Made by a program: the position numbers and the translations under genes
Notes under the pieces: model-generated
What the model was told of the DNA's origin: nothing
Database searches by the model: none
The model's input: only the letters and a program-made list of their open reading frames with translations
NCBI GenBank assembly: GCA_003158735.1
Contig: PMLB01000125.1
Location: 22,877 to 60,385 of the forward strand
DNA length: 37,509 nt
Direction: 5' to 3'
Source of the DNA: Myxococcales bacterium
Lineage (GTDB): Bacteria; Myxococcota_A; Polyangia; Fen-1088
In this document: in pieces, positions 18,932 through 34,319 of the stretch
Layout of the letters: each line of letters begins with the position of its first letter
Numbering within the stretch: position 1 is the stretch's first letter

Positions 18932-18959
18932 TCTGTAAGGTTGAGGGGCCTCGCGCTAC
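18932..18959 (+). promoter_or_regulatory. Candidate ECF-sigma promoter (module 1, autoregulatory copy): TGTAAG-N16-CTAC
   Basis: TCTGTAAGGT-N11-GCGCTAC, identical in both blocks and in spacing to 21647-21674. Confidence 0.7.
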
Positions 18960-18980: not shown

Positions 18981-19559
18981 ATGCGCAAACCGCCGCCATC
19001 TGCCTCACCCCCGAGAGAATCCTTGGATTCAGTCGGGCTGGGCTCGGCGGATTCACTGGCCGAGCTGTACGATCGCTATGCCCCGCAGGTCGAACGCTGG
19101 GCTCGCCGGCTGGCCGGCCCACGCTTCGACGCCGAGGATCTCTTGCACGACGTATTTCTGGTTGTGCTGCGCCGGCACCACGAATTCCGCGACGAGGCCC
19201 GCATCACGACTTGGTTGTTTCGTATCACAGCCCAGGTGGTGCGCTGGCGGCGCCGCAACGATGTTCTCCGCCGCTGGCTGTGGGGTCTGCACGGACAGGC
19301 ACTGGCGGAATCAAGATCCAACGGCCCCACTCCCGTCGAGGAGATTGAACGGCGCGAGGAAGGCCTGCGCCTATACGCGGCCATGGATCGCCTGCCGGAG
19401 AAGTATCGGACCGTTCTGATCCTGTCCGCACTCGAAGAATCCAGCGGCGAAGACATCGCCGCGCTGCTTGGCATCGAAACCAACACCGTGTGGGTCCGTC
19501 TGCACCGCGCCCGCGCCAAGCTGGCTGATTTGCTCACCCAAGAGGAAGGGTTGCCATGA
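18981..19559 (+). CDS. ECF-family sigma-70 factor (module 1)
   Basis: Region 2 LYDRY...DAEDLLHDVF...TTWLFRI and region 4 LPEKYRTVLIL...EDIAALLGI..NTVWVRLHRAR. Alternative TTG start at 18969. Confidence 0.93.
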   Translation: MRKPPPSASPPRESLDSVGLGSADSLAELYDRYAPQVERWARRLAGPRFDAEDLLHDVFLVVLRRHHEFRDEARITTWLFRITAQVVRWRRRNDVLRRWLWGLHGQALAESRSNGPTPVEEIERREEGLRLYAAMDRLPEKYRTVLILSALEESSGEDIAALLGIETNTVWVRLHRARAKLADLLTQEEGLP

Positions 19560-20767
19560 GCGAAAGCAAACCCACCCCCGTAGTCCTGAGGCGTGATCGG
19601 GGACTGGCCCTGGCAGACGCATTGCTGGAGAGCAACCGGCGATTGCAGCCTTTGCCTGCCGCTGCCCATGATCGCGTGAAGCGCCGGTTGCGCGCACGCC
19701 TGTACAGCCCTGCGTCCCGACGCGCGCGTTGGCTGCGTCCAGTCGTGGTTACAGGCTCACTGCTGCTCTGGGGAACCGCGTTTGGCATCGCCATCGATCG
19801 CTTCGTGATCAAACGCGATTCTTCGCCAGGTCCGCAGGTACAACCAGCCTCCGCCCCTGACAACCCTCGCGCGCGGCGATCGTGGGCCCGGCCGGAAAGG
19901 CCGATCTTTGTCGAGAGCGATCGAACAATTCCCTCTGAGCCAGCCCTTCTGCAGGAGGTCGCTGCTCCGAGTGTTGAGCCGCCCGCGCCCGCAAAACCCG
20001 CGACCACCTTGCCGCCGCTGGCCGCCCCTGCACACCCGCGGACTTCACACGCTGCAGGTCCTGTCGCGCGTCCTGCTCCGACGCGCGTTGCCTTCACAAA
20101 TCAGTCTGCGGCGACCGTCCCCGCAGCCGATCGCGAGTCTCTGCCCGCAACTGGACCGACGACTCCGCCGGCCTTGCCAGCACCGCGGGCTGAGGCCGCT
20201 GCCCCTGCCCCTGTGGCCGCGGTATTGACCACTGCTCCGGTACCGCCCCGCCCGCCCGAGAAGGCGGTTGCGCCGGCGGAGAGTCTGAGCGAGGAGCGGC
20301 TGCTGGCCGCGGCCGTGCGTTCTCTGCGCGCGAAGCAGGATGCGGCTTCTGCCTTGGCCGCCCTCGATGTCTATCAAGCCCGCTATCCGCAGGGCCGGCT
20401 GTCTGTCGAGGCGACCGTGCTCCGCATCGACGCGCTTACCGCCCTGCACCGACAACCCGAGGCCTTGCGTTCTCTCGATGAACTCGATCTCGGCCGCGTG
20501 CCAGGCGGCCTTGAGCGCCGCCTGCAGCGGGCCGAATTGCGCGCAGCCAGCGTGCGTTTTCGTGAAGCCATCGCTGATTTCGATGGGGTGCTGGCGCAGG
20601 CTCGGGGCACGGACGCCATCGAGCGCGCACTGGCAGGTCGCGCCAGGTGCCGTCAGCGACTTGGCGATGGCACAGCGGCGCGCGCGGACGCCATCGAGTA
20701 TCTGCAGCGCTTCCCCTCGGGGCCGTTCGCCCCGCAGGCGCGCGACATGGCCAAGGTAGGCCCGTAG
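19556..20767 (+). CDS. Single-TM, Pro-rich, C-terminal TPR protein; putative anti-sigma factor (module 1)
   Basis: ATGA-coupled to the sigma gene. TM VVVTGSLLLWGTAFGIAI, a Pro/Ala linker, then EERLLAAAVRSL...ALAALDVYQARYPQGRLSVEA and YLQRFPSGPFA. The anti-sigma role is inferred. Confidence 0.7.
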   Translation: MSESKPTPVVLRRDRGLALADALLESNRRLQPLPAAAHDRVKRRLRARLYSPASRRARWLRPVVVTGSLLLWGTAFGIAIDRFVIKRDSSPGPQVQPASAPDNPRARRSWARPERPIFVESDRTIPSEPALLQEVAAPSVEPPAPAKPATTLPPLAAPAHPRTSHAAGPVARPAPTRVAFTNQSAATVPAADRESLPATGPTTPPALPAPRAEAAAPAPVAAVLTTAPVPPRPPEKAVAPAESLSEERLLAAAVRSLRAKQDAASALAALDVYQARYPQGRLSVEATVLRIDALTALHRQPEALRSLDELDLGRVPGGLERRLQRAELRAASVRFREAIADFDGVLAQARGTDAIERALAGRARCRQRLGDGTAARADAIEYLQRFPSGPFAPQARDMAKVGP

Positions 20768-20782
20768 AGACGGCCGGCCCTG

Positions 20783-21646
20783 ATGACCCCCGCATCGATC
20801 GTCGCTCTGTTGCTGGCGCTGCAGCCCCATGTGGCATCTGACAGTAATTGCCCGTCGGCCCGCGATATCGAGGACAACTTGTCGGTGTTGTTGCCCGCCG
20901 AAGTGGTCCGGCCGGGAACCGCGGCCGTGATCTCGCGCGCCGATGGGCTGGCCATTCACCTGCAGCCCGAAGGTACCGAGCAGAGCGAAGAGCGATCGAT
21001 CGCGGTTGGCAGCGGCTGCGAGGAGCGCGCCAAGGCCGCGGCCGTAGCCATCGCCACCTGGTGGCCGACCCAACCGGCCGCCAGGGACAGCACGCCCGCG
21101 CCCGTGGCTGTGACGCTTGTCACGCCAGCCCTGCGCCCGAAGGCGCGTGTCGTGACTGTGGCCGCGGGTGGCTTCGCGTCGCTGATCGCCGGCAGTGCGG
21201 CTCCAGGGGTGCGCGCGGAAGTAGCGTGGGCGCCTTGGGCCAGCGCCCTGGCTTTTCGTCTGGACTTGGCAGGCACTGGCGCCCATGGCGCAAGCCTGAG
21301 TCCTGGCCAGGTACAATTCCGCCGCATGGCCGGCGAGGCAGGCGCGGCCTGGTCGCGCGGTCCCTTGCGCCTCGACGGGGCGGCAGTCGTCAGCCTGGTT
21401 TTCGTCGAGGGACAGGGCTACGCCTCGAACCAACAGTCGAGTGGGACATCCCTGGGCCTCAGCGCCGGAGGCCGCCTGAGTTGGGCCCTGGGACGCTGGG
21501 CTCCCTGGCTGGAATTGCGCGGCGTCGCCTGGCCGCAATCGCAGCGAATTTTCGTAACTGACTCGGCGACCGGAACCCGCAGCCAGCACAGCCTGCCGCA
21601 TGGCGAGCTACAATTGGGGGCCGGAATCTCGGTATCTCTGCTTTGA
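20783..21646 (+). CDS. Exported protein with a Cys pair, Pro linker and beta-strand-rich C-terminus; possible small outer-membrane barrel (module 1)
   Basis: Signal-like N-terminus, NCPS...SGCEERAKAAAVAIATW, and alternating-hydrophobic strands ending LQLGAGISVSLL. Paralogue of 33127-34137. Confidence 0.6.
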   Translation: MTPASIVALLLALQPHVASDSNCPSARDIEDNLSVLLPAEVVRPGTAAVISRADGLAIHLQPEGTEQSEERSIAVGSGCEERAKAAAVAIATWWPTQPAARDSTPAPVAVTLVTPALRPKARVVTVAAGGFASLIAGSAAPGVRAEVAWAPWASALAFRLDLAGTGAHGASLSPGQVQFRRMAGEAGAAWSRGPLRLDGAAVVSLVFVEGQGYASNQQSSGTSLGLSAGGRLSWALGRWAPWLELRGVAWPQSQRIFVTDSATGTRSQHSLPHGELQLGAGISVSLL

Positions 21647-21674
21647 TCTGTAAGGTCTGGCGCGGCTGCGCTAC
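21647..21674 (+). promoter_or_regulatory. Candidate ECF-sigma promoter (module 1, target copy): TGTAAG-N16-CTAC
   Basis: TCTGTAAGGT-N11-GCGCTAC starts immediately after the upstream stop and ends 9 nt before ATG 21684. Confidence 0.7.
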
Positions 21675-21683
21675 TGGAGCGAC

Positions 21684-23882
21684 ATGACAACCAATAACTT
21701 GTTTCGTGTGATGGCGACGGTCCTTTGCTTCACTGCCGCGTGCAAGGGCGATTTCGCAGCCGGAATTACTGGCAGCGGCAAAGACGGCTCCGCACGAGAG
21801 ACGGGCGCCTTGCAAGACGGCGGGAATCCGAACGCACAAGAGGCTGCACCTCCGAGCAGCACTGGCTCGGTTTCCTGCGACCCATTCCAACCGACCACCA
21901 AACCCATCACGCTTACCAATGTGATTGGCGTTGGCCAGGACACGGACGGGACCCTGTATGTCGTCGATCAACCGCAGCCCGGCGGTGAGCGCGTATTCGT
22001 CTCGTCGGGCGCCACGCTGCAGCGCCAGCGCATTGCCGGATCGGGGATCGATGGCTACAGCTACACCTTCTCCATCAGTGATCACATTCCGCCGTTCACC
22101 CTCAGACTGGACACGAATACCGCGGGTCCCACAGCCATGGGCGTGCTGCTGGGAACGACAGACGGCAAGACCTTCACCATCGGCCAGCAGGGCAACGTTC
22201 TCACGCTGGTTTCCGCCTCCCAGATCGCTGCCATGCCCGTCGCTAACCTTCCCGCAGAAACCATCGTCGAATGCGATGCAACCATTCCCGACGGACGCGT
22301 TTTGTTGGTGGTTCGTCCTCGCGATGACTGGACTCTGGAAGATTTGCGTGTGTTCTTCGGCACCCAGGGCGACCTGATCGAGCGACCCGTGGATCACGTG
22401 GATCGGCTTATGGGAGGTGATGGGACCTTCGTCTACTTCACGATCGACGGTGTGGCGGCCTCCGCTACCTACCCGCTCACCCTGACCATTGGCACCACTT
22501 CGTTCCCCTTGACCTTGGTGCTAACGGATTCCCCGCCCGCTGGAGAAAGCTACTTCTGTCTCGGGAATCCATCTCCTGATGGTGGCGCTGATGCTTGGGT
22601 GCCGCCCGCAGACGGGCCGTCGTGCCGCGCGCCTTCGCCTGATTATGGGCCGACGTCGGTCTTCCCGTTCCTCCCCGATGGCACCCCGGCGGCAACCACC
22701 ACCTGCCCCGCGGCGTGCGGAGACTCGGCGTGGCCACCGGGTTTTTCGTCGTTTCCCAACATCGACATTGCGCTTCCCTACGGATCGTGCGCGCCTGGCA
22801 CTCCCTCATGCTCGACAGGTGCGACGGTTCCGTGTGCCTGTGCCCAGGGAACGGGGGGACCCGTGCACGGCTTCAACTGTAGCTGCGAGGGTGGCACCTG
22901 GATCTGTGGTATCCGTACGGCCGGTGGGGCGATGTGTATGCCGTGTCCGGACGCTGGCGTGAGTGATGGCTTACCAAGCGGAGACGGCGCGAGCAAGCCT
23001 GACGGGTTGAATCTCACCGGGCTGACAGCGATGACACTCACCGTGACCTGGATCCCGCGGACGTCTGACCCCCCCGGTGCGTGCCACACCGATACCAAGA
23101 ACGTCTATTCCTTGGACATTCAGACTCGGGTGCTCAACTGGGAGCATTGTGCAGTCGATCCCAACACGGCAGCCGCCTACCGCAAGACCGAGACCCAGAC
23201 ACTCACAGGCTACGAGGTGACGGCCGCGCGGATGCTGCTCGCCTTCCTGTCGACAAGCAACCGGACCCAATGTGGGGCCGACGCGGATACCGAAACCCTT
23301 GACCTGACGTTTCCAGACCGGGTCCAAAAATACCAAGACGACTTCTATGCCTGCAACCCGCCACTCGACGGTCGAACCTATATCGCCAACATCACATGGA
23401 TCAGAGAATGGTTGGGCCAGTTGGGCCAGAATATGAATCCGCTTCCCAGCAGTTTCGTGAGCCTGTCGGTGACGTCCGATCTCAACCCCTTTGCCAGCGA
23501 CACAGCGATGACGGCCGCGACAGCGGCGTGCGGAGATGCTGTCTACCCCACGTACGATGTCACCGCGGCAACCAAGAAGCTCAGCTGGTCGACCTGCGTA
23601 TCCAGTTCGACTGGCTACAAGCTGCAGACCGGCAATCGAGTCCTGAGTCAAAGCGAATTCGCGAGTGTCATGCAAAGCTGGTCGGCAATTCAACCCGGCG
23701 CAACTGGAGACTGCTCCACGCCGCGCACCTCAAAGGAGATGGTGCTCACGACGGCGCCGAATGTGCCTTCGGCTTACTACCTGAACGATCTCGCTGTCTG
23801 CAGCCTCTCCAGCTACAACGGCTCCATGCCCGTTGTCGGGTTGGATGACTTCTCGGCGCTGCTTGTGTCGTTGGCTCACTAA
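21684..23882 (+). CDS. Multidomain Cys-rich lipoprotein of unknown function
   Basis: Lipobox FTAAC, a beta-rich N-domain, a Cys-rich middle, and two tandem ~140-aa four-Cys domains at the C-terminus. GGAG RBS. Confidence 0.75.
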   Translation: MTTNNLFRVMATVLCFTAACKGDFAAGITGSGKDGSARETGALQDGGNPNAQEAAPPSSTGSVSCDPFQPTTKPITLTNVIGVGQDTDGTLYVVDQPQPGGERVFVSSGATLQRQRIAGSGIDGYSYTFSISDHIPPFTLRLDTNTAGPTAMGVLLGTTDGKTFTIGQQGNVLTLVSASQIAAMPVANLPAETIVECDATIPDGRVLLVVRPRDDWTLEDLRVFFGTQGDLIERPVDHVDRLMGGDGTFVYFTIDGVAASATYPLTLTIGTTSFPLTLVLTDSPPAGESYFCLGNPSPDGGADAWVPPADGPSCRAPSPDYGPTSVFPFLPDGTPAATTTCPAACGDSAWPPGFSSFPNIDIALPYGSCAPGTPSCSTGATVPCACAQGTGGPVHGFNCSCEGGTWICGIRTAGGAMCMPCPDAGVSDGLPSGDGASKPDGLNLTGLTAMTLTVTWIPRTSDPPGACHTDTKNVYSLDIQTRVLNWEHCAVDPNTAAAYRKTETQTLTGYEVTAARMLLAFLSTSNRTQCGADADTETLDLTFPDRVQKYQDDFYACNPPLDGRTYIANITWIREWLGQLGQNMNPLPSSFVSLSVTSDLNPFASDTAMTAATAACGDAVYPTYDVTAATKKLSWSTCVSSSTGYKLQTGNRVLSQSEFASVMQSWSAIQPGATGDCSTPRTSKEMVLTTAPNVPSAYYLNDLAVCSLSSYNGSMPVVGLDDFSALLVSLAH

Positions 23883-23978
23883 CCTCCCCTTCTTGAGGCT
23901 GCCCTCCCGTAGCGAAGCTGCTACACTTTGCGCCTGCCGGGCCCGGCGGCCCGGGAAATTTGGAAAGGGAGGGCACCC

Positions 23979-24899
23979 ATGGCTGAGAACAGGCGCATTC
24001 GCAAGGTTGTCAGGAGTCGCGCGACCATCGAGGGAGCGGGCGTTCATCTGCATCGGGCTATCGGCTTCGGCGATCCGACGCTGTGCGATCCGTTTCTTCT
24101 GTTTGACGACTTTCGCTCGGACAGGCCCGAGCACTATCTCAAGGGATTCCCCTGGCATCCCCATCGCGGCATAGAAACCATCACCTACGTCCTGCGCGGC
24201 GATGTCGAACACGGCGACAGTCTGGGCAACAGCGGCGTGATCTCGTCCGGCGACGTGCAGTGGATGACCGCTGGCAGCGGCATCGTTCACCAGGAAATGC
24301 CCAAGGGCGATCCCCAGGGCGCGATGTACGGCTTCCAGCTGTGGGCCAACCTACCCGCAGCCCAGAAGATGATGGACCCGCGCTACCGGGGGTTTGTCAG
24401 CGCCCAGATTCCCGAGGCCGCGCTGGCGAACGGCGTTCGCATCAAGGTCATCGCTGGTGCCGCCGACGGCGTAACCGGCCCGGTACGCGACGTGGTCACT
24501 GCGCCCGAGTATCTCGACGTCACCGTGCCCGCGGGCGTGACCTTCACCCGGGCCACGCCGCGTGGCCACACCGTGCTGGCCTACGTGATCGGCGGCAAAG
24601 CCGTGTTCTGCCAGCAAAGCGATCCCTACAGCTACGAGGCCGAGGGCGGCAACTACTTCGACATGGAACGAAGCGCGCAGTTAGGCGACGGCCACATGGT
24701 GATCTTCGCCGACGGCGACAGCGTGACTATCAAGGCCGGCGACGAGCCGGCGCGTTTTCTGCTGATTTCAGGCAAGCCCATCAAAGAGCCCGTCGCCTGG
24801 TACGGGCCCATCGTGATGAACACCCAGGAGGAACTGCGAGTCGCCTACGAAGAACTGCAGAACGGTACCTTCGTGAAGGTACGTGGCCGCGAAAAGTGA
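23979..24899 (+). CDS. Pirin-family protein
   Basis: EGAGV, DPFLLFD, GFPWHPHRGIETITY, HGDSLGN, GDVQWMTAGSGIVHQEMP, QLWANLP, YGPIVMNT. GGAGG RBS. Confidence 0.95.
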   Translation: MAENRRIRKVVRSRATIEGAGVHLHRAIGFGDPTLCDPFLLFDDFRSDRPEHYLKGFPWHPHRGIETITYVLRGDVEHGDSLGNSGVISSGDVQWMTAGSGIVHQEMPKGDPQGAMYGFQLWANLPAAQKMMDPRYRGFVSAQIPEAALANGVRIKVIAGAADGVTGPVRDVVTAPEYLDVTVPAGVTFTRATPRGHTVLAYVIGGKAVFCQQSDPYSYEAEGGNYFDMERSAQLGDGHMVIFADGDSVTIKAGDEPARFLLISGKPIKEPVAWYGPIVMNTQEELRVAYEELQNGTFVKVRGREK

Positions 24900-24972
24900 C
24901 AGCGGTCACATGACGCCCCGTCATTGTGGCAGAATCCGAACCATTCCGTCAGTGTGCCGGAGCCGCAAACGG

Positions 24973-27900
24973 CTACTTTTGGACGTAGATGATCTTCTTG
25001 CACGACGAGGTGCAAATACCATCGACGCCATTCTTGCTTCCGCTGTCGCACTCCTCGGGGCCGTTGGGATAACCATCGCCACAGTGGGGGCCCAACTTGC
25101 ATTGCGGAGTGCAGCCACCGTATGAGCCGTCGTTCTTGCCGTCGTCGCACTCCTCGTTTCCATTCACGATGCCGTCGCCGCAGTGAGGGGCGAAGACGCA
25201 ACTCGGGGCGCAGCCACCGTACTCGCCGTTGTTGTTGAGCGACCCGTCGTCACATTCTTCGGGCGGCTCGATCAAACCGTCGCCGCACCCACCTGGCAGA
25301 CGGCACGCGTCGGTGCAATTGGGATCGTTCGACATGGTGGGTTCGCATTCTTCCCCGTAGTCCGTGTCAATATTACCGTCGCCGCACCTGGGAGCCAAGC
25401 TGCAGTCGCTCTTGCAGGTTCCGTAGCTGCCGTCGTTGACGCCGTCGTCACATGCCTCGTCGCCATTCGTGATGCCGTCGCCGCAACGCCCGCCGCGCTT
25501 GCAGTTCGACGTACAGCCACCATACACAGCGTTGGGATCGCTGCTGGTTGCGTTCTTAGCGCCGTCGTCGCACTCCTCATCGAAGTCGGTTTGCACCACG
25601 CCATCGCCACATCGTGCGGGCAGCTTGCACCCTGGGGCGCAGCCCTTGGCTGAGCCATAGTCGTCGCTGTTGATGCCGTTGTCGCACTCCTCGCCGTCAC
25701 TGACCACGCCGTCGCCGCAATAGGGTCCCCACTTGCACTGCGAGGTACAGCCGGTGTACGCGGGTTTGTCGTTGGGACCCGGGCAGCTCGCGGGAGCTGT
25801 GCCGGTCCCGTCGCCGCAGTCGCACTCTTCCCCGCCCGTCACCACGCCGTCGCCGCAGCGAGGCTGGCAGGCGGATCGGGTCGTCGTGAAACCACTTAGG
25901 GTGAGCTGGTAGTTCGACTCGGGCGGGTGCCGGTCAGCGCCGAAGATCGCGATCTCGTAGACCTTGCCGGTGACCAGCCCCAGCGGGACGGTGCGCACGC
26001 GGAAATCATCCCCGTCCTTGGCCGTCGGAGGCAGGGGGGTAGTGTTGGTAGGCGAACAGGCGGCTGAGCCAGCGGTGACCCCAGTGATGTTTCCTGTTGC
26101 GTCGAGGCAGCCACCTTCCGTGACACTGGCGTTGCCGCCGGTTAGGTCGCTGACCGTCACTTTTCCAGGCAACTGCTGGTGGACGCCGCCGAGATCGAGG
26201 ACCAGAACGCCATTGATGAAGATGAAGAGATCGTCGTCGCCGTAGAAACTGAGACTGATGCCTGCGGCACCGTTGTAGACGAAGTAGTAGCGCGCCTCAT
26301 CAGTGAAGTAATTGTCATGCTTGACGCCGGGAGTATTTGCGACCCAGCAGCCATTGCTCAGCGGATTCTGGTTTGGGCAATCCGCCTGGACCACGCGCGG
26401 TGGGAAGAAATACTGGTCGCCTTGGCAGGTGGCCCAGATGGCAACGCCACTGCTATGGTTCCAGTAGGGCCATAGGTCACATAGCGTGACCTGGCTGGGA
26501 TTCAGCGGGTCGAGGGGGTAGAAGCCATTGTCCGGGCCAGCTAGATGCGTCTTGCTGGCGTACTGGTAGACATTTCCGCCGATGCTGGTCATTTCGAGAA
26601 CGTCTGTGAAGGTCTTGTTGACCGTGTTGTCATCGTTGAACCACTGCTTGAAGCTGGCGGCATCTTTGAATGCGGGTGTCGTCCCCAACCAAACCGGGCC
26701 GCCCGGGGTGCTCTGGGTATAGCGGACCAGTGTGCCGGCAGAAACGCCAGCGTTGCCGGTCACGATGACAGCCGTGCCGATATTTCCGCCCAAATAGCCG
26801 CCAGCCCCGTTGGAAAGAGGACTGTCGTTGCCGGCCTGGGTGTAGCCGCTGGGGATGTGGAGCGCAGCATTGCCGATGTTCCAGTCACTGAACTGGCAAG
26901 CGCAGGTCGTCGTGGTACCGGGCTGCGGCTTGCCGTTCAACAGATTCGCAGCCACGATTCCCCAACAACGTGCGGTCGAGTCGTTGCCCTTGGAAGGACC
27001 GCCCGAGTTGGGAACACAGATGGTCGTGGGCGAAGTCGAGGGCGATTTCTTCGTGCCCAGGAAAAAGAAGTCCGGGTGCCCGCCGGGAGAGACGTTTTCC
27101 GGCTGGAAGTCACGGTAGGTGATGGGGAGTTCGAGGCATTGTCCTGAGCCCGATTTGCACGTCGAGGAGTCCTGGGCGGTCGCAGGCGGGCAAGCGAAGC
27201 CACCTTCAACCTTGCACTTCGACGAACAACCATCGAGGTCCACCAAGTTTCCATCGTCGCAATCTTCGCCTGGATCGAGGTTTCCGTCGCCGCAGGCCGA
27301 GGTACAGGCCTGGGTCTTGCCCGTCGTGGGGTCCTGGCAGCTCGGCTCCTTGGTGCAAGTCTTGGAGCAGCCCTTGCCGTCGCCATAGAAGAGCCCGTTT
27401 ACGGCCTTGCATCCGGTTGGCAGATTGTTCGGGTCAATGCCGCAGTCGCACAGCTCGCTCTTCTCCACAATTCCGTTGCCACACTTGGCCGTTGTGCAAG
27501 TCTGTCCCGCCGTCGGACAGTCAGCGCCGGGCTCGATCTGGCAGGTGCTGGAGCAGCCATCGCCACTCGTGGTGTTGCCGTCGTCGCACTGTTCGCCTTT
27601 GAGGACCTTGCCGTCTCCGCACTTGGCCGTGCACGCCTTGCCAACCACCCGACACTGGAAACCAGTCTCGACCGTCTTACAATCGCTCGAGCAACCATCG
27701 CCGCTGACCGTGTTGCCGTCGTCGCACTGTTCGCTCCCTTCGAGCGCGCCATTGCCGCACTTGACGATCGGGCAGACGCACAACTGGCCCGGGGTACAAA
27801 CGCAGCCCGCGCCCTTCATCTTGCAGTCGGCCGAACAGCCGTCGCCATCCTTCATGTTGCCGTCGTCGCACACTTCGCCAATCGAAAGCTGGACAACGCC

Positions 27901-28599
27901 ATCACCACATCGTGCGTCCGGCTTGCAGGGAGCGCCTGGCGTCGGGCAGCTCCAACCGGCCTCGACCTGACAAACGCTGCTGCAGCCATCGCCGCTGTTG
28001 CTGTTGCCGTCGTCGCACTTTTCGCCCGATTCGATACGCTTGTTGCCACACTGGGAAACCAGGGTGCAAGGTTGTCCGGGGACACATTTGTAGCGGGGGT
28101 CCTGCACGGTGCAGGTAGAATTGCAGCCGTCGTTGTCGAGAGTGTTGCCATCGTCGCAGACCTCACCCGCGCCGACGACTTTGTCGCCACAGATGACCAG
28201 TCGCTGGCAGGCCCCCGCGGGCGGACATTTCCAGTGGGGCTCGACCTTGCAGGCACCATTGCACCCATCGCCGGGCAAGGCGTTTCCGTCGTCACACTCC
28301 TCGATGCCATTCTGATTGTTGATTCCATCGCCGCAGGCCTCAGGATACTCGGCCTTGCAGCCCAGAGTGCTGTCGCTGTTGCAGACCCCAGAGCCGCTCG
28401 TCGTCGTCGTGCCGCCGGACGAGGAGGCGATGGTCGAGATGATGTTTCCACCGAGCGCTCCGGCCGCGCCAGAATTCCCACCTCCCACGCCTCCCCCACC
28501 GCCTCGCGCACCTCCGTTGTTTTCTACCTCCGAGCTGTTACAGGCAGCTGCCGCCAACACAAAAAGGAACATTGCATGGCCGGTGTGGGCTGTATTCAT
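24973..28599 (-). CDS. Large lipoprotein with myxobacterial Cys-rich repeats (DUF4215/Myxo_disulph type) and a central fibro-slime (PA14-like) domain
   Basis: Lipobox LAAAAC. I count 8 CG(D/N)x..E.CD repeats before and 8 after a central domain containing [14 protein letters not shown]...[23 protein letters not shown]. Confidence 0.88.
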   Translation of the reverse strand: [1208 protein letters not shown]

Positions 28600-28713
28600 C
28601 GGAGAACCTCACGGAAAAAGAGACTCTGGCGAATGCCCTGAAGGGACCTCGCCTGACTATACACCGGGCTTCATCAGCGGCGGCAGGAACAAAATCGATT
28701 TCCTTCCTGTCGT

Positions 28714-28753
28714 ACTGCGCCCTGCTTGTCCGACTGCGCCCCGCTTGTCCGAC
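28714..28753. repeat. 19-bp tandem direct repeat upstream of the fibro-slime gene
   Basis: ACTGCGCCCTGCTTGTCCG / ACTGCGCCCCGCTTGTCCG (18/19 identical), followed by AC. Confidence 0.7.
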
Positions 28754-28938
28754 ATCCGAATGCCACGTCAACCGGCACCCCCCAGTAACCCAGGGAAAAC
28801 AGGCGCGATTCTAAGGGGTTGCGGGCTGAAAGTCACGCCAGCCAGGACTTCGGTGCGCAGACTGGTGCCCCGTTCGCCTAGCTTGAAGAATCGATCGAGC
28901 ATCCCGCCCAAGCGTACACCGGCAGCGCCCAAGCGAGG

Positions 28939-30360
28939 TTACCTCAGCCACCGCCGCAAGACGACCCACCGACAGCCGCGAACTACAGTGTCATGAAACT
29001 GCCACACGATGAAGACGTAGAACACCGGCTCCAAGAAGAATTTGAAGCGGTGGTTTTCGCCCTGCTCGCATAAGATGGAAATCGCAAAAATGTAGAACGC
29101 CGGCAATAGCATTGCCACTCTGCAGGCGTAGTCCTTCTCCCTCCGCCCTTGCGCAAGCCATATCACACCCGCCAAAGACAAGAGAACAATCAAGACTGGC
29201 CCAGAGAAGATCAAGTCGTAGACGGACTTCCACGGAAGCAGCTCGATGTGCTTGCGCGGGGAGTAGGTGCTCGACGGACGCCAGTAGATCTTGAGGTTGT
29301 TGTAGTAGGCACTGAGAAGGACCGCCACAGGAGCTGTCGTGAGGTAGGTCTTGTATTCACTCTCAAGCTGCCTATCGAACTCTACGTAGCAGAGCCTATT
29401 GTAGTTGAGGCTGCCGTCCAGCTTGTTCTTCCGCGTGAGGACTCTTGGCAAAGCACTGGGCAATTCTCCGTCTGGGTCAACCTCGTAGGGCCAGGTGTAC
29501 TTCATGACTCCAGCGGAACGGACCAGATTGAGTCCGGTAAAGGTGGATGTGCTGAGGAGCCCAAACTGGCCGTATTGCTTCGCCACGTACGACCCACAGA
29601 TTCCGCCAGTTATCAGCAAGAAAAGCACCACCGTGCGCCACGGCACCTTCAACAAGTATAGAGAAACAGCCATAACCAAGAGAAAGGGGAGTTGAAAGAG
29701 CGACCTGAAGAAGAACAACAATACCGACGAAGCGGTGACCGCAAAGATGGAGGGACAGCCGCGTCTCAGTTTCCACAAGGAATAGTACATCCACAGAACA
29801 AGAACGCTGGACAGCAATGTGGTATCCAATAGTGTTGAATACACCAGGGCGGCGGGATGGAGCAGGAACAAGAGGGAGGCAAGAAGGGCAATTGTCTTTC
29901 CCACCAGGCCTGACAGCCAACGGAACATGAGCAGGCCGCACACGCCGTAGAGGATTGACCACACAAGATACAGGGCGTCGTCCACCTGCTTGAGAGCGGC
30001 GTGTATGTCCAGGGAGGGCCAGAGATGGACGAGAATGGCCCTGGCGAGGTCGAACCCCGGAGGCTGAATGTGAATATGGGTGAGTGATTCGAGGGGCGAG
30101 TCGCGGAGGTCCAGTATCGACACGGTCTGCATGAGGGTCTCGGACGAAAACCACTCGCGTTGGTGACCGTCGGTCAAATAGGGTTGGGCCTGATGTCGCA
30201 AGGCCACTTGAAACAGGAGGCCGAAGATCAGAATGGCAGCGCCAGCGAGGGGAAGCTTCCTTGCCTTGTCGATGATGGAGCGCAAACTGGCCTTGCCAAT
30301 CTCGCGACTGAGGCGACTGGTGTCGCGGGAACCTGCTCCTGGTGACTCGGAAGGGACCAC
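28939..30360 (-). CDS. Polytopic membrane protein, GT-C fold (ArnT/PMT-like) glycosyltransferase candidate
   Basis: Roughly ten TM stretches, HIQPPG in the first loop, and ENHRFKFFLEP before the last TM. Visibly more AT-rich than its neighbours. The start codon is uncertain. Confidence 0.55.
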   Translation of the reverse strand: MVPSESPGAGSRDTSRLSREIGKASLRSIIDKARKLPLAGAAILIFGLLFQVALRHQAQPYLTDGHQREWFSSETLMQTVSILDLRDSPLESLTHIHIQPPGFDLARAILVHLWPSLDIHAALKQVDDALYLVWSILYGVCGLLMFRWLSGLVGKTIALLASLLFLLHPAALVYSTLLDTTLLSSVLVLWMYYSLWKLRRGCPSIFAVTASSVLLFFFRSLFQLPFLLVMAVSLYLLKVPWRTVVLFLLITGGICGSYVAKQYGQFGLLSTSTFTGLNLVRSAGVMKYTWPYEVDPDGELPSALPRVLTRKNKLDGSLNYNRLCYVEFDRQLESEYKTYLTTAPVAVLLSAYYNNLKIYWRPSSTYSPRKHIELLPWKSVYDLIFSGPVLIVLLSLAGVIWLAQGRREKDYACRVAMLLPAFYIFAISILCEQGENHRFKFFLEPVFYVFIVWQFHDTVVRGCRWVVLRRWLR

Positions 30361-30480
30361 GGCGCGGACTCTATCCTATGATGGCGTGGGCGAGTTGGTA
30401 GTTTGTTGGGACGCTTTCCCCACGCGCACCCCGGCGGTTCGACCACGTACATTTCGACTTGCTATCTGCCCATACGAGAG

Positions 30481-31698
30481 TCAGCGGGTGCAGCCTGGCC
30501 ACCAGCAAGGAACCGTGCGGCTCCAATCGGCTATCGCTCGCCAGCGCGGCGTATCGTCCTCGACGGTTTCCAGCAGGCCGTACACGCTGCCGTCGCCGCC
30601 GCGAACATCGACGTAGTGGTGAAAGAGCGTGCCACCCAGTGCTTTCCAGCGGCTCAGCATGTCTGCGTACACCTGCTGCATGCGCGGATGCCGCGCCACC
30701 TGGCGGCGGAACTCGGCCGTCGCGCCAGTCTGGTTGTATCCCAAGTCGATACCCATCGAATACGCGGTGAACACCAGGCCGTGCGATTGAGCCAGATCCA
30801 AGTCCGCCGCCACATCCGCGGCCATGTTGGCCGTCACGTCGGCAGCCAGCAGATCGACCGCCTGGTCGACGCCTGCCGCGCCCTGCGATTCCAGCGTTGT
30901 CCAGCTATCAACGTTGCCACTGAAGAATCGGCTGACGGCGTACTCGTCGAAGCCGTGTTGCCAACAGACCTGGTTGCCTTCGTTCACCCACAAGGGACAT
31001 TCGATCGCTTGCTGTCCGACACCGCTGTTTCCGGCCTGGGCCACCACGACGCAACGGACACGATGGCGTCCTGTCGCACCGAAGACCTCGTTCTTGAAGA
31101 TGTCGCAGGCCTGCGCCAGGCGCATGCCCGCCCACTCCGCCGCGCACCAGTCCGTCACGTTCCAGCGGGCTTGGCATTGGGCAAGCGCATATTGGGCGCG
31201 GCCATTCCAGTATTCATCGCCGATCTCGATGCGCGCAATCAGCCCCGGATCCAGATTGTCCCGTAAGTATTCCGCAAGGCCGCGCAAGTAACCATCCGTG
31301 GCTTGGGCAGGAATGCTGAACCAGCAGTCGACCTGCGCGCGGTTGCAGATCGCGACCAGAACCTCGATGGGCGCGCCCCGGTCGGAGTCCAACCAGTTGT
31401 CGGCTAGCTGGGTCCGCGTGTTCCACTCGGTGACCGATGCCGAATCCAGGGTGTCGCCCCATCGGATGCTGCGCATCTGCCCTAGCTTTTCAAGATAGAG
31501 CGGATTGAAGGCCGATCCGTCGGCCAGTCCTGCGGCGGTGCGGTTGGTTCCAAGGTAGTTGTCGCCGTCGCGCACCCACAGCCAGGTGCCGTCCACGCCA
31601 GCCGAGCTTTTGTCCGCGCCCATGCGAGCCACGTAGAGATCGCCGCTGCACGCCGCGAAAGCGAGCAACGCGAGCGCAACCAACCAACGCGCGTGCAC
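30481..31698 (-). CDS. Lipoprotein, clan GH-A-like glycoside hydrolase homologue with a degenerate active site (putative pseudoenzyme)
   Basis: Lipobox FAAC. Collinear with 34320-36089 (ICNRAQVDCWFSIP vs LCNRAHVDYWINVP; LDPGL vs LDPSL). It has IEIGDEYWN in place of IEYSNEVWN and AYSMG in place of SYEGG. Confidence 0.75.
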   Translation of the reverse strand: MHARWLVALALLAFAACSGDLYVARMGADKSSAGVDGTWLWVRDGDNYLGTNRTAAGLADGSAFNPLYLEKLGQMRSIRWGDTLDSASVTEWNTRTQLADNWLDSDRGAPIEVLVAICNRAQVDCWFSIPAQATDGYLRGLAEYLRDNLDPGLIARIEIGDEYWNGRAQYALAQCQARWNVTDWCAAEWAGMRLAQACDIFKNEVFGATGRHRVRCVVVAQAGNSGVGQQAIECPLWVNEGNQVCWQHGFDEYAVSRFFSGNVDSWTTLESQGAAGVDQAVDLLAADVTANMAADVAADLDLAQSHGLVFTAYSMGIDLGYNQTGATAEFRRQVARHPRMQQVYADMLSRWKALGGTLFHHYVDVRGGDGSVYGLLETVEDDTPRWRAIADWSRTVPCWWPGCTR

Positions 31699-31703
31699 CA
31701 GGC

Positions 31704-32525
31704 CTACCGTCCTCGCAACGCCTGACGAGCCTTGCTGGCGAAGTTACCCTGCGGAAAACGCGAGATGATCTGCCCGAGATCGGAGCGTGCGCCCGCACTG
31801 TCGCCCAAGCGTGATCGACAGGACGCGCGTCCCCACAGCGCCCGTTCCTCCAGCGCATCGCCAGAGCCGTCAAGGCCCGAGCCGAGATCAGCAACGGCCT
31901 GGTTGCAGCGGCCCACTGCACCGCGAAGCTCACCACGCAGCACGGCCAGCTCGCGTGCCCGCGGAAGTTCCGTCAACTGCGTCCGGTCGAGGATCTCAAG
32001 TGCGTGGACGCGATCATCCAGCTCCAGAAGCGCATCGATGCGTGCCAGGGTTGCTTCGCGCGAGAGGGTTCCGTTCGGGAATCGCTTGCCGTACTCGTCG
32101 AGCGCGGACAGCGCCGACCGTGCGTCGTGTTGTTGCCGCAGAAGCTGGAGTGCGGCGGTCAGCAGACGCGATTCCTCGGCGATGCTGCTGGGAACCGGCT
32201 CCACGGCGAGCACCGGGTTGCGCGCAGGCGCCGCTGGTTGTGGCGGCGTGGTCAACCGGGCGACACGGCCCCGCAACAGCACCGTGGCAGCAACAGCACC
32301 CGACACCGCGACCAGCAGGCCTGCGGCCAGCGCCAGGCGCAACATGCGCATTCCTTGGCGTCTGCGCGAGCCGTGCAGTTTGTCTGCCACCCGAGACAGC
32401 AGCTGGGGATCGCCTGTCGGCACCATGGCTGCCTGCCGTATCAGATCGCCGGCCCGCTGCTCGAGCGGCGGACTCGTTGGGTCGTGGTCGCTCCAATGCT
32501 CGTGAATCGGGCTGCTGTCGTTCAT
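31704..32525 (-). CDS. Single-TM, C-terminal TPR protein; putative anti-sigma factor (module 2)
   Basis: ATGA-coupled to the sigma gene. TM LALAAGLLVAVSGAVAATVLL, then EESRLLTAALQLL...ALSALDEYGKRFPNGTLSREA...RFPQGNFA. Paralogue of 19556-20767. Confidence 0.7.
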   Translation of the reverse strand: MNDSSPIHEHWSDHDPTSPPLEQRAGDLIRQAAMVPTGDPQLLSRVADKLHGSRRRQGMRMLRLALAAGLLVAVSGAVAATVLLRGRVARLTTPPQPAAPARNPVLAVEPVPSSIAEESRLLTAALQLLRQQHDARSALSALDEYGKRFPNGTLSREATLARIDALLELDDRVHALEILDRTQLTELPRARELAVLRGELRGAVGRCNQAVADLGSGLDGSGDALEERALWGRASCRSRLGDSAGARSDLGQIISRFPQGNFASKARQALRGR

Positions 32526-33088
32526 GGGGCCTCCCTCCTCTCGATGCGCTCGAGCTCGCGCAGAAACTGGGCCCGTGCTCGGCGCAGTCGCACCCAGATT
32601 GTGGCCAACTTCATTCCCGTCAGCTTCGCGACATCCTCGCCCGACATCGACTCCATTTCGAACAGAATCAGCACGCTCCGATACTTCTCGTCCATCCTGT
32701 CCAGGATCCGGTAGACGAGCTCGACCGACTGCTGGCGCTCGATCGACTCGACCGGGCTGGTCGTCGAGGAATTGAGGGCACGTCCAGCTTCCTCGGCGCG
32801 GTGCAAACCGAGCCAGCGCAACTTGCGGTCTCTGCGCCGCCGGTCAAACACGATGCGCTCGGTGATACGGTACAGCCAGGTCGTTATCTTGGCATCGCCG
32901 CGAAATTCATGCAGCCGGCGCTGAACCACCATGAAGACCTCATGGACCATGTCTTCAATGTCGGAATGCGGCCCGGCCAGCCGCGCAATCCAGTGCATCA
33001 CATCGGGCGCATGGACTCGGTAGATTCCGTCGAGGTCGAGCGGAGCCACGTACTCGTTCGCTGCCACAGTGGACTCGGCGCAGTTCAT
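32522..33088 (-). CDS. ECF-family sigma-70 factor (module 2)
   Basis: IYRVHA...DIEDMVHEVF...TTWLYRI and MDEKYRSVLILFEME..SGEDVA...ATIWVRLRRAR. ATG 33088 is chosen because the promoter motif lies at 33101-33126. ATG 33130 is the alternative. Confidence 0.92.
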   Translation of the reverse strand: MNCAESTVAANEYVAPLDLDGIYRVHAPDVMHWIARLAGPHSDIEDMVHEVFMVVQRRLHEFRGDAKITTWLYRITERIVFDRRRRDRKLRWLGLHRAEEAGRALNSSTTSPVESIERQQSVELVYRILDRMDEKYRSVLILFEMESMSGEDVAKLTGMKLATIWVRLRRARAQFLRELERIERREAP

Positions 33089-33100
33089 TCCGCCAGTCTC

Positions 33101-33126
33101 GTGTCGGTCGAGTTCGGAACCTTTCA
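33101..33126 (-). promoter_or_regulatory. Candidate ECF-sigma promoter (module 2, autoregulatory copy): TGAAAG-N16-ACAC
   Basis: The minus strand reads TGAAAG gttccgaactcGACcg ACAC, directly after the stop of 33127-34137. It matches 34275-34300. Confidence 0.65.
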
Positions 33127-34137
33127 TCATAAACGTCCTAGGCTTGCACCCAGGATCACATTGATGTGCAGGGCCGGCAACTCGTAGCCCATGGACGGGA
33201 TGCCTTCGATTCGCAGCGTCGTGCGATGCGGCCAGCCTGAGGCGGCGATTTCCAGCCAAAATGCGTGTCGGCGACCGCAGAGCAGCGCACGTACACCGGC
33301 CCCGGCGCCGACGTCCATACCGAAGTCGCTGAGATCGTTGGGATAGCCTGACCCAGCCGCGACTGCGGCAGCCAGCAACGCCTCGGCGTGCAGGTCGATG
33401 CGCAAACGCCCCCCGCCAGCGCGAAAACGCGGCCCAGCTTGAAATTCGGCTCGCGTCCAACGCGCGTTGCCCAGGCCGATCGGCGACGTGCGCAGCCAGT
33501 CAACTTGAAGGGCCGCTCGCAAACCCCAGCGCCAACCAGCCGGAGAGCCCGTGCCTTGCAAGGCCAGTGTCGGCGCAAGGAACGACGCCCACGACAGGCC
33601 AGCCCCAGCGCCAAGGTCGAAGACTGCCGACGGTGGAAGAAACGGCGGTGCAGGTGGGGGCAGCGGATGTGGCGGTGGTGGCGGTGGCGGCGGCAACTCT
33701 GGCGGCGGTGGCGCCGGCGGCGGCTCTTGGCGCGGGCTGGGAGAGTGAGGCGGGGGGAGTCGTGGCGGGGGCAACAAGTGGATGGGCGGAGATTGACGAT
33801 TGAGCTCGGGCGAAGGAACCAGCGCCGGCCTGAACTCGGCCTCCCACGCCGCGACTACGGCGGCGACCGCTGCAGCGAGATCCCGACACGACGCCGAGGC
33901 CGCGAGGTGGCGTTCTCCGAGCAACCCACCGTCATCGCGCCGCAACTCGATCCTGATTGTCTCACCCTCGGTCGACAACACCGCACGATCCGGCGACGTG
34001 CCCTCGGCGGCGTCAGGAAGTAGCCGCCGCAGTCTTTCGGCGACCTCAGCGGGATCAGGACAGGTAGCCGTTCCCGAGACCGTCACCATGGGATGCGCCA
34101 GCAGCAGCACCAGCAGGGTCTGGGCGATCACGACCAC
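33127..34137 (-). CDS. Exported protein with a Cys pair, poly-Pro linker and beta-strand-rich C-terminus; possible small outer-membrane barrel (module 2)
   Basis: TLLVLLLAHP signal-like start, TCPD...ASCRDLAAAVAAVVAAW, a poly-Pro linker, and strands ending INVILGASLGRL. The start is placed at GTG 34137 (or 34131) by alignment with 20783-21646. Confidence 0.6.
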   Translation of the reverse strand: MVVIAQTLLVLLLAHPMVTVSGTATCPDPAEVAERLRRLLPDAAEGTSPDRAVLSTEGETIRIELRRDDGGLLGERHLAASASCRDLAAAVAAVVAAWEAEFRPALVPSPELNRQSPPIHLLPPPRLPPPHSPSPRQEPPPAPPPPELPPPPPPPPHPLPPPAPPFLPPSAVFDLGAGAGLSWASFLAPTLALQGTGSPAGWRWGLRAALQVDWLRTSPIGLGNARWTRAEFQAGPRFRAGGGRLRIDLHAEALLAAAVAAGSGYPNDLSDFGMDVGAGAGVRALLCGRRHAFWLEIAASGWPHRTTLRIEGIPSMGYELPALHINVILGASLGRL

Positions 34138-34274
34138 CCCGTGGGTCGCCGAACCGTCGGCCAGTGAGCTGCTTCTTCCACGTCTCAGAGTTAGCGCGCA
34201 CAGGCCGGCACGGTCAACGGGTGAAGCACAAGGTCGGCCGAGACGGGCCCAACGCATCGGCCCATCAAGAAAGG

Positions 34275-34300
34275 TGAAAGTTTTCTCACCTGACAAACAC
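34275..34300 (+). promoter_or_regulatory. Candidate ECF-sigma promoter (module 2, target copy): TGAAAG-N16-ACAC
   Basis: TGAAAG ttttctcacctGACaa ACAC, 19 nt before ATG 34320. It is overlapped by the inverted repeat AGGTGA...TCACCT (34272-34291). Confidence 0.65.
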
Positions 34301-34319
34301 TGGCAGCCAAGGAGCCACA

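Follow-up and report, generated by a model that had tools for sequence, protein, structure and literature searches.

In Fec-type cell-surface signalling, the periplasmic N-domain of an outer-membrane protein contacts a single-pass anti-sigma that controls an extracytoplasmic function (ECF) sigma factor, which induces linked genes; the outer-membrane partner is a 22-stranded TonB-dependent transporter with an STN domain and the anti-sigma carries a FecR domain. Here we describe two gene modules found in a 37,509-nucleotide stretch of DNA (hereafter the window; positions 22,877 to 60,385 of contig PMLB01000125.1, ~65% G+C) from assembly GCA_003158735.1 of an uncultured Myxococcales bacterium from peat (6.49 Mb, 82% complete). 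Translation of the open reading frames (ORFs) of the window demonstrated that region 18981-34137 holds two diverged four-gene modules on opposite strands, each encoding an ECF sigma factor, a protein that spans the membrane once and has a periplasmic tetratricopeptide repeat (TPR)-like domain, an exported protein combining a two-cysteine domain with a barrel (hereafter the barrel protein) and a lipoprotein. Its probable role is to relay cell-surface signals to the expression of genes. Our preferred reading, to which we give a probability of roughly 0.6 based on fold prediction, a predicted protein contact and comparative genomics, is that it forms an envelope-spanning ECF signalling unit in which a two-protein bridge gates the sigma factor and the lipoprotein is the output.

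The nearest published analogue is the Dma family (Dma1/Das1), in which an N-terminus of 40 amino acids (aa) that binds the sigma factor, a helix in the inner membrane, a disordered linker and an outer-membrane barrel of eight strands form one chain (PMC10927553). Dma is paired with an ECF21 sigma factor, has the lipoprotein genes NigD1 and NigD2 in its regulon and, by that account, occurs in Bacteroidota only. The modules share with Dma an ECF sigma factor, a short cytoplasmic N-terminal part, one helix, a long low-complexity periplasmic linker, a small outer-membrane barrel and lipoprotein genes, while they differ in that the barrel comes as a protein of its own, with signal peptide and two-cysteine N-domain, a TPR-like domain forms the end of the inner-membrane protein, a predicted protein-protein contact makes the link between the two, and the source organisms are Polyangia-type myxobacteria rather than Bacteroidota. 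The barrel expected of a Dma protein is supplied by the partner protein, whose AlphaFold2 (AF2) model has a barrel of 8 to 10 strands that Foldseek matched to OmpA, OmpX and OmpW. Membership in Dma was rejected, as the barrel was separate in 67/67 cases, the sigma factors scored below the cut-off of the Bacteroidetes-type model (below) and the named relatives are myxobacterial; it is the lack of a single chain that keeps us from filing them as Dma.

The ECF21 subgroups s9, s16 and s28 of Bacteroidetes have a separate anti-sigma at +1 and an outer-membrane barrel at +2 (PMC7826278 supplement). This combination of sigma factor, single-pass anti-sigma and separate barrel corresponds to one of the two gene orders found here (order A, below), although the entries used from that supplement describe no TPR domain, two-cysteine N-domain, permuted order or linked variable lipoprotein. 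The modules resemble the FecA-FecR-FecI type of system (PMC9249621, PMC11637429) in outline logic but not in parts, since the barrel is small and no STN-type match occurred among the listed hits of its N-domain; Pfam gave no match to FecR or Plug/TonB_dep_Rec in the module proteins. In the SigX-CfrX-CmpX-OprF system of Pseudomonas aeruginosa (ECF102), a sigma factor is linked to an OmpA-like barrel that is thought to be regulatory by a mechanism described as unresolved (PMC7826278); unlike the module barrel, OprF ends in a peptidoglycan-binding domain and counts among the major porins, and the system is described with neither a TPR anti-sigma nor a variable lipoprotein. A full-text literature search found no description of such a module in myxobacteria. 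The modules add a variant to trans-envelope ECF sigma control and give context to a very large uncharacterised outer-membrane family.

Recurrence and co-divergence of the module

Module 1 on the forward strand runs sigma-TPR-barrel-lipoprotein (order A), while module 2 on the reverse strand runs barrel-sigma-TPR-lipoprotein (order B), a circular permutation of order A. BLASTP comparison between the modules gave 52% identity over 161 aa for the sigma factors (E 1e-45), 48% identity over the 180 C-terminal aa of the TPR proteins (E 2e-36) and two weak segments for the barrel proteins (29% and 31%; E 9e-5 and 3e-4); together with four other paralogues, the barrel proteins can be aligned along their entire length, with two invariant cysteines. 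No relationship was found between the two lipoproteins (best BLASTP E 2.5). An earlier note on this DNA had proposed two four-gene modules in these places and orders, with three homologous core proteins and unrelated lipoproteins, and these comparisons bear out each part of that description.

Further modules were found by tblastn on contigs C57, C223, C46 and C168 of the same genome, two in order A and two in order B, one of the latter cut by a contig end. A wider profile recovered ten barrel loci in the assembly, all located beside an ECF sigma gene, among 38 hits to the ECF profile. One of these ten (contig C115:35462-37936) has a third layout in which the barrel gene (+) diverges from sigma and TPR genes (-). 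Among related genomes, a six-row barrel profile matched 28 of 41, the source genome included, and its taxonomic distribution was uneven, with matches in 24/24 genomes of the family to which the window belongs (1-14 each) and in 3/16 genomes of other families of the class. An even sample across the phylum yielded at least 19 matched genomes out of 301 (source included; E <= 1e-10), the count being a lower bound in view of the more stringent initial screen. Close homologues came from metagenome-assembled genomes labelled Myxococcales, Polyangia or Polyangiaceae.

Gene neighbourhoods were surveyed in 60 regions around full-length matches in 20 other genomes, a non-random selection from 150 listed matches (17 more were not listed), and scanned with profiles built from the paralogues of the source genome. 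This provided 67 barrel genes from 21 genomes (61 fetched and 6 from the source), of which 41 lay in order B, 21 in order A, three beside a sigma gene followed by a contig end and two with neither partner. A sigma gene and a TPR-protein gene were therefore adjacent to the barrel gene at 62/67 places, and the co-occurrence of the core elsewhere, which the earlier note had set as a test beforehand, held. The two barrel genes with no sigma or TPR-protein gene nearby (L031, L032) and three order-B loci with 1.2-1.5 kb between barrel and sigma (L020, L047, L051; the last two retain the promoter-like motif described below on the barrel stop) were observed besides. In the reverse direction, 80 loci anchored on the sigma gene (sigma alignment, named records) included 41 with both partners (barrel downstream in 22 and upstream in 19), 20 with the TPR gene only, three with the barrel gene only and 16 with neither, the loci without a barrel belonging mostly to distant sigma factors. 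For the more distant sigma relatives among these (L114-L157), the sigma/TPR pair may predate and outrange its association with the barrel; alternatively, their barrels may have diverged beyond the reach of the profile.

The three core genes have diverged together. Correlations of pairwise distances between sigma factor, TPR domain and barrel were 0.76-0.78, a level reached in 0/999 permutations, and they were still 0.47-0.51 when only pairs below 60% sigma identity were compared; the nearest neighbour agreed between core genes in 33-37 of 62 modules. This is the outcome of the co-phylogeny check that the earlier note had called for, and together with the 62/67 triads and the many unrelated fourth-gene families described below it supports the notion of a conserved core with an exchangeable lipoprotein. 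In a quick maximum-likelihood tree of the sigma factors, 20 of the 21 order-A modules fell in one group (Shimodaira-Hasegawa-like approximate likelihood ratio test, SH-aLRT, 83; not starred). The order label changed twice on this tree in comparison to 17.8 times when shuffled, which demonstrates clustering and not a number of events, as kin share labels. Order B is taken as ancestral and order A as derived because it is order B that occurs in the more distant families. The junction of barrel stop and motif is retained in either order, consistent with circular permutation through a tandem duplication followed by loss, a path that we infer. The modules would have multiplied by duplication with lipoprotein exchange, and the sigma-first order may have arisen about once from the barrel-first order.

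Core proteins and their predicted contact

Both sigma factors have PF04542 and PF08281 matches above cut-off and, with ~190 aa and regions sigma-2 and sigma-4 only, correspond to ECF (group 4) sigma factors. The general ECF model TIGR02937 scored 95.1 bits for sigma 1 and 79.2 bits for sigma 2 (cut-off 42.9) and was the only NCBIfam model passed, every subfamily or equivalog model lying below its cut-off for both; the Bacteroidetes-type model TIGR02985, with a cut-off of 126.4 bits, reached 81.5 and 57.2. The C-terminal extension typical of ECF220 is lacking. On taxonomy alone, the module sigma factors may belong to ECF210, a group that contains only Sorangium, Sandaracinus and Chondromyces and that was left unanalysed for lack of genomes, according to the part of the classification used here (Casas-Pastor 2021, PMC7826278).

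The TPR proteins share a cytoplasmic N-terminal part of 60-80 aa, one hydrophobic helix, a Pro/Ala-rich linker and a C-terminal domain of helical repeats. Pfam TPR_6 matched the protein of module 2 (28.6 bits, cut-off 26.3) and no Pfam family matched that of module 1 alone, while a 50-sequence profile of the TPR proteins matched the TPR region of DNAJC3 (E 1.8e-5) and another TPR protein (E 1.5e-4) in the PDB; these matches support a TPR-like C-domain. The stop codon of the sigma gene and the start of the TPR gene overlap by 4 nucleotides (nt) in 47 of 62 modules. Given its position, this gene overlap and its topology, the TPR protein is likely an anti-sigma. Assignment to a class I anti-sigma (ASD, zinc-binding or not; RskA, FecR) was tried and rejected, no such N-terminal domain being recognised by Pfam.

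The barrel protein of module 1 was modelled with AF2 from a 55-row alignment (predicted local distance difference test, pLDDT, 90.3) as an alpha/beta N-domain, a linker and a C-terminal beta-barrel. Foldseek matched the barrel to OmpA, OmpX, OmpW, NspA, Ail and the N-domain of OprF with E values from 2.5e-7, and the C-terminal part is accordingly modelled as a small outer-membrane beta-barrel with 8 to 10 strands. Outer-membrane barrels with an even number of strands have both termini facing the periplasm, and the two-cysteine N-domain should therefore hang there on its Pro-rich tether. Modelled in isolation, the N-domain reached pLDDT 92.2; its best fold matches were HPF/YfiA and RafH (E 0.009-0.05) and the periplasmic domain of VtrA (template modelling score, TM, 0.59-0.63; E 0.03-0.09), which were set aside as leads only. 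All 67 barrel genes have their own start and signal peptide. The family is without a Pfam or NCBIfam model and all 62 of the 62 close homologues are annotated as hypothetical, yet the barrel profile retrieved 7889 clusters at 50% identity (E <= 0.001), 950 of them at E <= 1e-30.

A model of the complex between the TPR domain (residues 238-403) and the N-domain of the barrel protein (15-100) of module 1 scored 0.72, in comparison to 0.00 for the best of three controls. This score was reached by 116/157 solved complexes and 2/215 mismatched pairs, a calibration that is only rough since our own alignments were used. Repeated runs agreed in 100% of contacts with partner pLDDT >= 82, and the predicted interface involves the two helices that follow the conserved cysteines together with E285, the one residue that does not vary across the alignment of the anti-sigmas. 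The model thus supports a contact between the TPR domain and the N-domain of the barrel protein.

Promoter-like motif and the fourth gene

Three places in the window match the pattern GWAAGGTY-N11-CGMYAC, namely 18935(+), 21650(+) and 33125(-), where 0.13 occurrences were expected and three were reached in 0/100 shuffles, and it does not occur again in the 6.49-Mb assembly. These counts are circular, because the pattern was derived from the same three sites, and independent support comes from other genomes, in which it recurs at the equivalent place. In module 1 the motif begins 3 nt past the last base of the barrel stop codon, and in module 2 it begins 1 nt past it; with the preceding T counted, the gaps are 2 nt and 0 nt. 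The site at 21650(+) ends 10 nt before the lipoprotein gene. A similar sequence at 34269(+), GAAAGGTG, precedes the paralogue of lipoprotein 2, but its downstream element is not at motif spacing and it was not counted as a site.

For the comparison across genomes the motif was generalised to the 7-mer G[AT]AA[GC][GC][TA], searched from -2 to +30 relative to the first base of the barrel stop. It was present in 41/67 modules in comparison to 1.7% expected from background, and in 16 of these 41 the stop codon lies inside the motif (TGAAAGGT or GTAAGGT); alignment of the sites revealed a GACAC/CTAC-like element 13-14 nt further on. In order A, the 7-mer occurred within 150 nt upstream of the sigma gene in 20/21 modules (7.6% expected) and after the TPR stop in 0/21, while in order B it followed the TPR stop in 9/41 and was found within 200 nt upstream of the barrel gene in 2/44. 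Variants of the -35 element cluster on the sigma tree (4 changes, 15.2 when shuffled, 0/500 as low), which is consistency only, as kin share labels and the pattern is expected either from kinship or if each sigma factor reads its own site. One of the two lone barrel genes (L032) has TGAAAGGTT...GACAC on its stop codon and a gene following, and may be an orphan read in trans.

The fourth gene was defined as the same-strand ORF starting -60 to +400 nt from the last core gene, which could be evaluated in 60 modules, and lipoboxes were scored with strict and loose rules of our own. The strict rule flagged 33/60 fourth genes, and reading the misses by eye revealed further plausible lipoboxes. The loose rule flagged 49/60 (20/21 in order A and 29/39 in order B) in comparison to 96/1083 flanking ORFs; counted once per sigma cluster at 70% identity, the fraction was 30/40. 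The background was taken as flanking ORFs of at least 150 aa, gene callers based on G+C content by codon position having been dropped after they mis-called the Ala/Pro-rich module genes. Median gaps were 34 nt from barrel stop to lipoprotein in order A and 42 nt from TPR stop to lipoprotein in order B.

A Pfam search of 40 of the 49 flagged proteins (the nine omitted were close orthologues or cut by contig ends) identified FG-GAP propellers (7), DUF1592/DUF1588/DUF1585 (7), glycoside hydrolase (GH) family 54 arabinofuranosidase (3), DUF4215 (2) and single cases of GH5, GH8, polysaccharide lyase, Laminin_G_3, Kelch, DUF1552 and DUF5648, with no family in 14. Several expectations of the earlier note were borne out by these data: its placement of the motif within 2 nt of the barrel stop in both modules was correct when the preceding T is counted, the enrichment of lipoproteins among fourth genes, again set as a test beforehand, was found, and the catalogue it had asked for indeed comprises many unrelated families. 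It had left open whether the lipoprotein sets the input or the output, and the output half gains support from the lipoprotein gene having its own motif copy in order A or following closely behind the anti-sigma gene in order B.

The features of the two modules are collected in Table 1. Lipoprotein 1 had no Pfam, PDB or usable Atlas match. Lipoprotein 2 is 26% identical to the C-terminal part of the product of 34320-36089 (tblastn search of the assembly); its Atlas matches were unnamed clusters, the nearest named one, GH5/GH53-like at 0.77, being a lead only, and a sequence search of solved structures with 34320-36089 returned nothing. ORF 34286-35140 (-) is a Pro-rich shadow of the Gly/Ser/Thr linker encoded by the latter gene.

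Table 1. Genes and promoter-like sites of the two modules, in positions of the window
Feature	Position	Strand	Remarks
ECF sigma factor 1, 192 aa	18981..19559	+	Pfam Sigma70_r2, Sigma70_r4_2; TIGR02937
Putative anti-sigma 1, 403 aa	19556..20767	+	Start overlaps sigma stop (ATGA); topology; TPR-like C-domain
Barrel protein 1, 287 aa	20783..21646	+	Signal peptide, N-domain 16-93, linker, barrel 122-286
Lipoprotein 1, 732 aa, Cys-rich	21684..23882	+	Lipobox FTAAC
Barrel protein 2, 336 aa, long Pro-rich linker	33127..34137	-	Paralogue of barrel protein 1
ECF sigma factor 2, 188 aa	32522..33088	-	Start chosen downstream of promoter-like site
Putative anti-sigma 2, 273 aa, TPR-like C-domain	31704..32525	-	Pfam TPR_6; paralogy to anti-sigma 1
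Lipoprotein 2, 405 aa	30481..31698	-	Lipobox FAAC; begins 5 nt past anti-sigma 2 stop
Lipoprotein-2 paralogue, 589 aa, Gly/Ser/Thr-rich linker	34320..36089	+	Divergent from barrel 2; module membership uncertain
Promoter-like site GTAAGGTT-N11-CGCTAC	18935..18959	+	Upstream of sigma 1; function inferred
Promoter-like site GTAAGGTC-N11-CGCTAC	21650..21674	+	Between barrel 1 stop and lipoprotein 1; function inferred
Promoter-like site GAAAGGTT-N11-CGACAC	33101..33125	-	Directly after barrel 2 stop, upstream of sigma 2; function inferred

Other genes surround the modules. An ordinary pirin gene (23928-24899, +) directly follows lipoprotein 1, and the interval between the modules encodes a 1208-aa lipoprotein (24973-28599, -) that has a fibro-slime domain besides nine myxobacterial Cys-rich repeats (TIGR02232, DUF4215). 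Downstream of lipoprotein 2, after a gap of 120 nt, the same strand carries a gene (28939-30360, -) for a polytopic membrane protein of 473 aa without a known family; in one locus of the survey (L068) a large membrane protein, not a lipoprotein, likewise follows the TPR gene. Nearly the whole stretch 19715-23735 is present in DNA runs of peat, permafrost and a bioreactor. At >=95% identity, contigs of RNA libraries from four metatranscriptome runs of peat or wetland correspond to portions of anti-sigma 1 and barrel 1, to the barrel-lipoprotein junction (21562-21757) and to most of lipoprotein 1.

Proposed mechanism, alternatives and significance

In the proposed signalling unit, the sigma factor would be held at rest at the inner membrane by the co-translated single-pass protein, its putative anti-sigma. 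The TPR-like domain of the latter would hang from the inner membrane on a Pro/Ala-rich tether, facing the N-domain of the barrel protein, and the predicted binding of the two periplasmic domains would let the pair bridge both membranes. Activation may occur when an event in the periplasm or at the outer membrane breaks or alters the bridge and the sigma factor is freed, probably by proteolysis of the anti-sigma. The free sigma factor would then read the GWAAGGT...GACAC-type promoter that abuts the barrel stop, which in order B would drive sigma factor, anti-sigma and lipoprotein, while in order A one promoter copy would precede the sigma gene and a second would drive the lipoprotein. In both orders the lipoprotein gene is located behind a promoter that the sigma factor would read, and the variable lipoprotein is therefore interpreted as the output.

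Several observations weigh against this reading. No recognised anti-sigma domain was found in the whole TPR proteins (Pfam, E 0.01), nor any Pfam family at E 1 in the N-terminal 95-100 aa of eight members, and the anti-sigma role is drawn from position, gene overlap with the sigma factor and topology only. The N-domain of the barrel protein has no structural relative at E <= 0.001, and its contact with the TPR domain is read from model confidence with unpaired alignments. Of the highly conserved columns, only 2/18 in the TPR domain and 2/6 in the N-domain fall within the predicted interface; its positions are mostly variable, which would suit insulated paralogues and would equally suit a wrong interface. 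The strict 7-mer is missing near the barrel stop in 26/67 modules, several of which show near variants, and it occurs above background after the sigma stop in 9/62, which is unexplained. The order-B barrel is not placed under the sigma factor, because its gene precedes the promoter-like site and lacks such a motif upstream (2/44). Eleven of the 60 fourth genes were not flagged as lipoproteins, under lipobox rules that are a heuristic of ours and not a dedicated predictor. The 20 sigma-anchored loci with a TPR gene and no detectable barrel gene imply that relatives may work without one. Nothing is drawn from the RNA-library contigs, because such contigs show neither transcription starts nor the absence of DNA.

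Alternatively, the barrel may be a structural outer-membrane partner of the lipoprotein, serving as its anchor or assembly platform and travelling with sigma factor and anti-sigma through co-regulation. Small barrels of 8 to 10 strands are usually structural proteins or adhesins, the barrel gene adjoins the lipoprotein gene in order A, and the same 20 barrel-less loci would fit this explanation. We nevertheless consider it unlikely, since order B separates barrel from lipoprotein by the sigma and anti-sigma genes and has the promoter-like site downstream of the barrel, divergence of the barrel follows that of sigma factor and TPR protein while the lipoprotein is swapped between families, and the predicted contact is with the TPR domain. 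A different division of roles would make the lipoprotein the sensor, binding an extracellular or periplasmic ligand and signalling through barrel and TPR protein, with its own induction acting as positive feedback. Such an input role would agree with the retention of one lipoprotein beside each module and with the frequency of ligand-binding or polymer-degrading families among the fourth genes (GH54, GH5, GH8, polysaccharide lyase, FG-GAP, Laminin_G_3, Kelch), but it appears improbable to a similar degree, given that nothing in the sequences ties the lipoprotein to the barrel or TPR protein, that the lipoproteins have no common domain for docking onto a conserved partner and that the sole positional evidence is the location of their genes downstream of the promoter-like motif.

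The TPR domain could also monitor folding or insertion of its own barrel, making the module a sensor of outer-membrane assembly stress of the sigma-E/RseA kind. The partner is indeed an outer-membrane barrel and the TPR domain has weak, sub-cut-off matches to the BamD/YfiO and YbgF models; about ten insulated paralogues per genome with different lipoproteins fit specific signals better than a general stress, however, and the predicted contact is with the folded N-domain and not with the C-terminus of the barrel, which makes this explanation very improbable. The envelope-spanning signalling unit with the lipoprotein as output is thus the reading that we prefer.

A bolder proposal, which we put forward tentatively, is that the modules represent a new class of trans-envelope signalling. 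A large unnamed barrel family (the 7889 clusters noted above) would provide the outer-membrane receptors, whose disulfide-stapled domain would dock on TPR anti-sigmas, with up to 14 insulated channels per genome in one Polyangia family of peat and soil. The channels would have a promoter variant each, linking every one of them to a surface lipoprotein of its own, for instance a glycoside hydrolase. This would be a myxobacterial counterpart, built of unrelated parts, to the logic of the polysaccharide-utilisation loci of Bacteroidota. The envelope-spanning unit, if real, would constitute an independent two-protein solution, in another phylum, to the dual membrane-spanning ECF control that was described in 2024 as confined to Bacteroidota, and it would give a very large family of hypothetical outer-membrane proteins its first functional context. 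It would also account for about a quarter of the ECF-like sigma factors of the source genome (10 modules, 38 ECF-profile hits). The diverged sets of sigma factor, anti-sigma, barrel and promoter are candidate orthogonal regulatory parts, and the modules would be markers of the extracellular polymers to which abundant peat bacteria respond.

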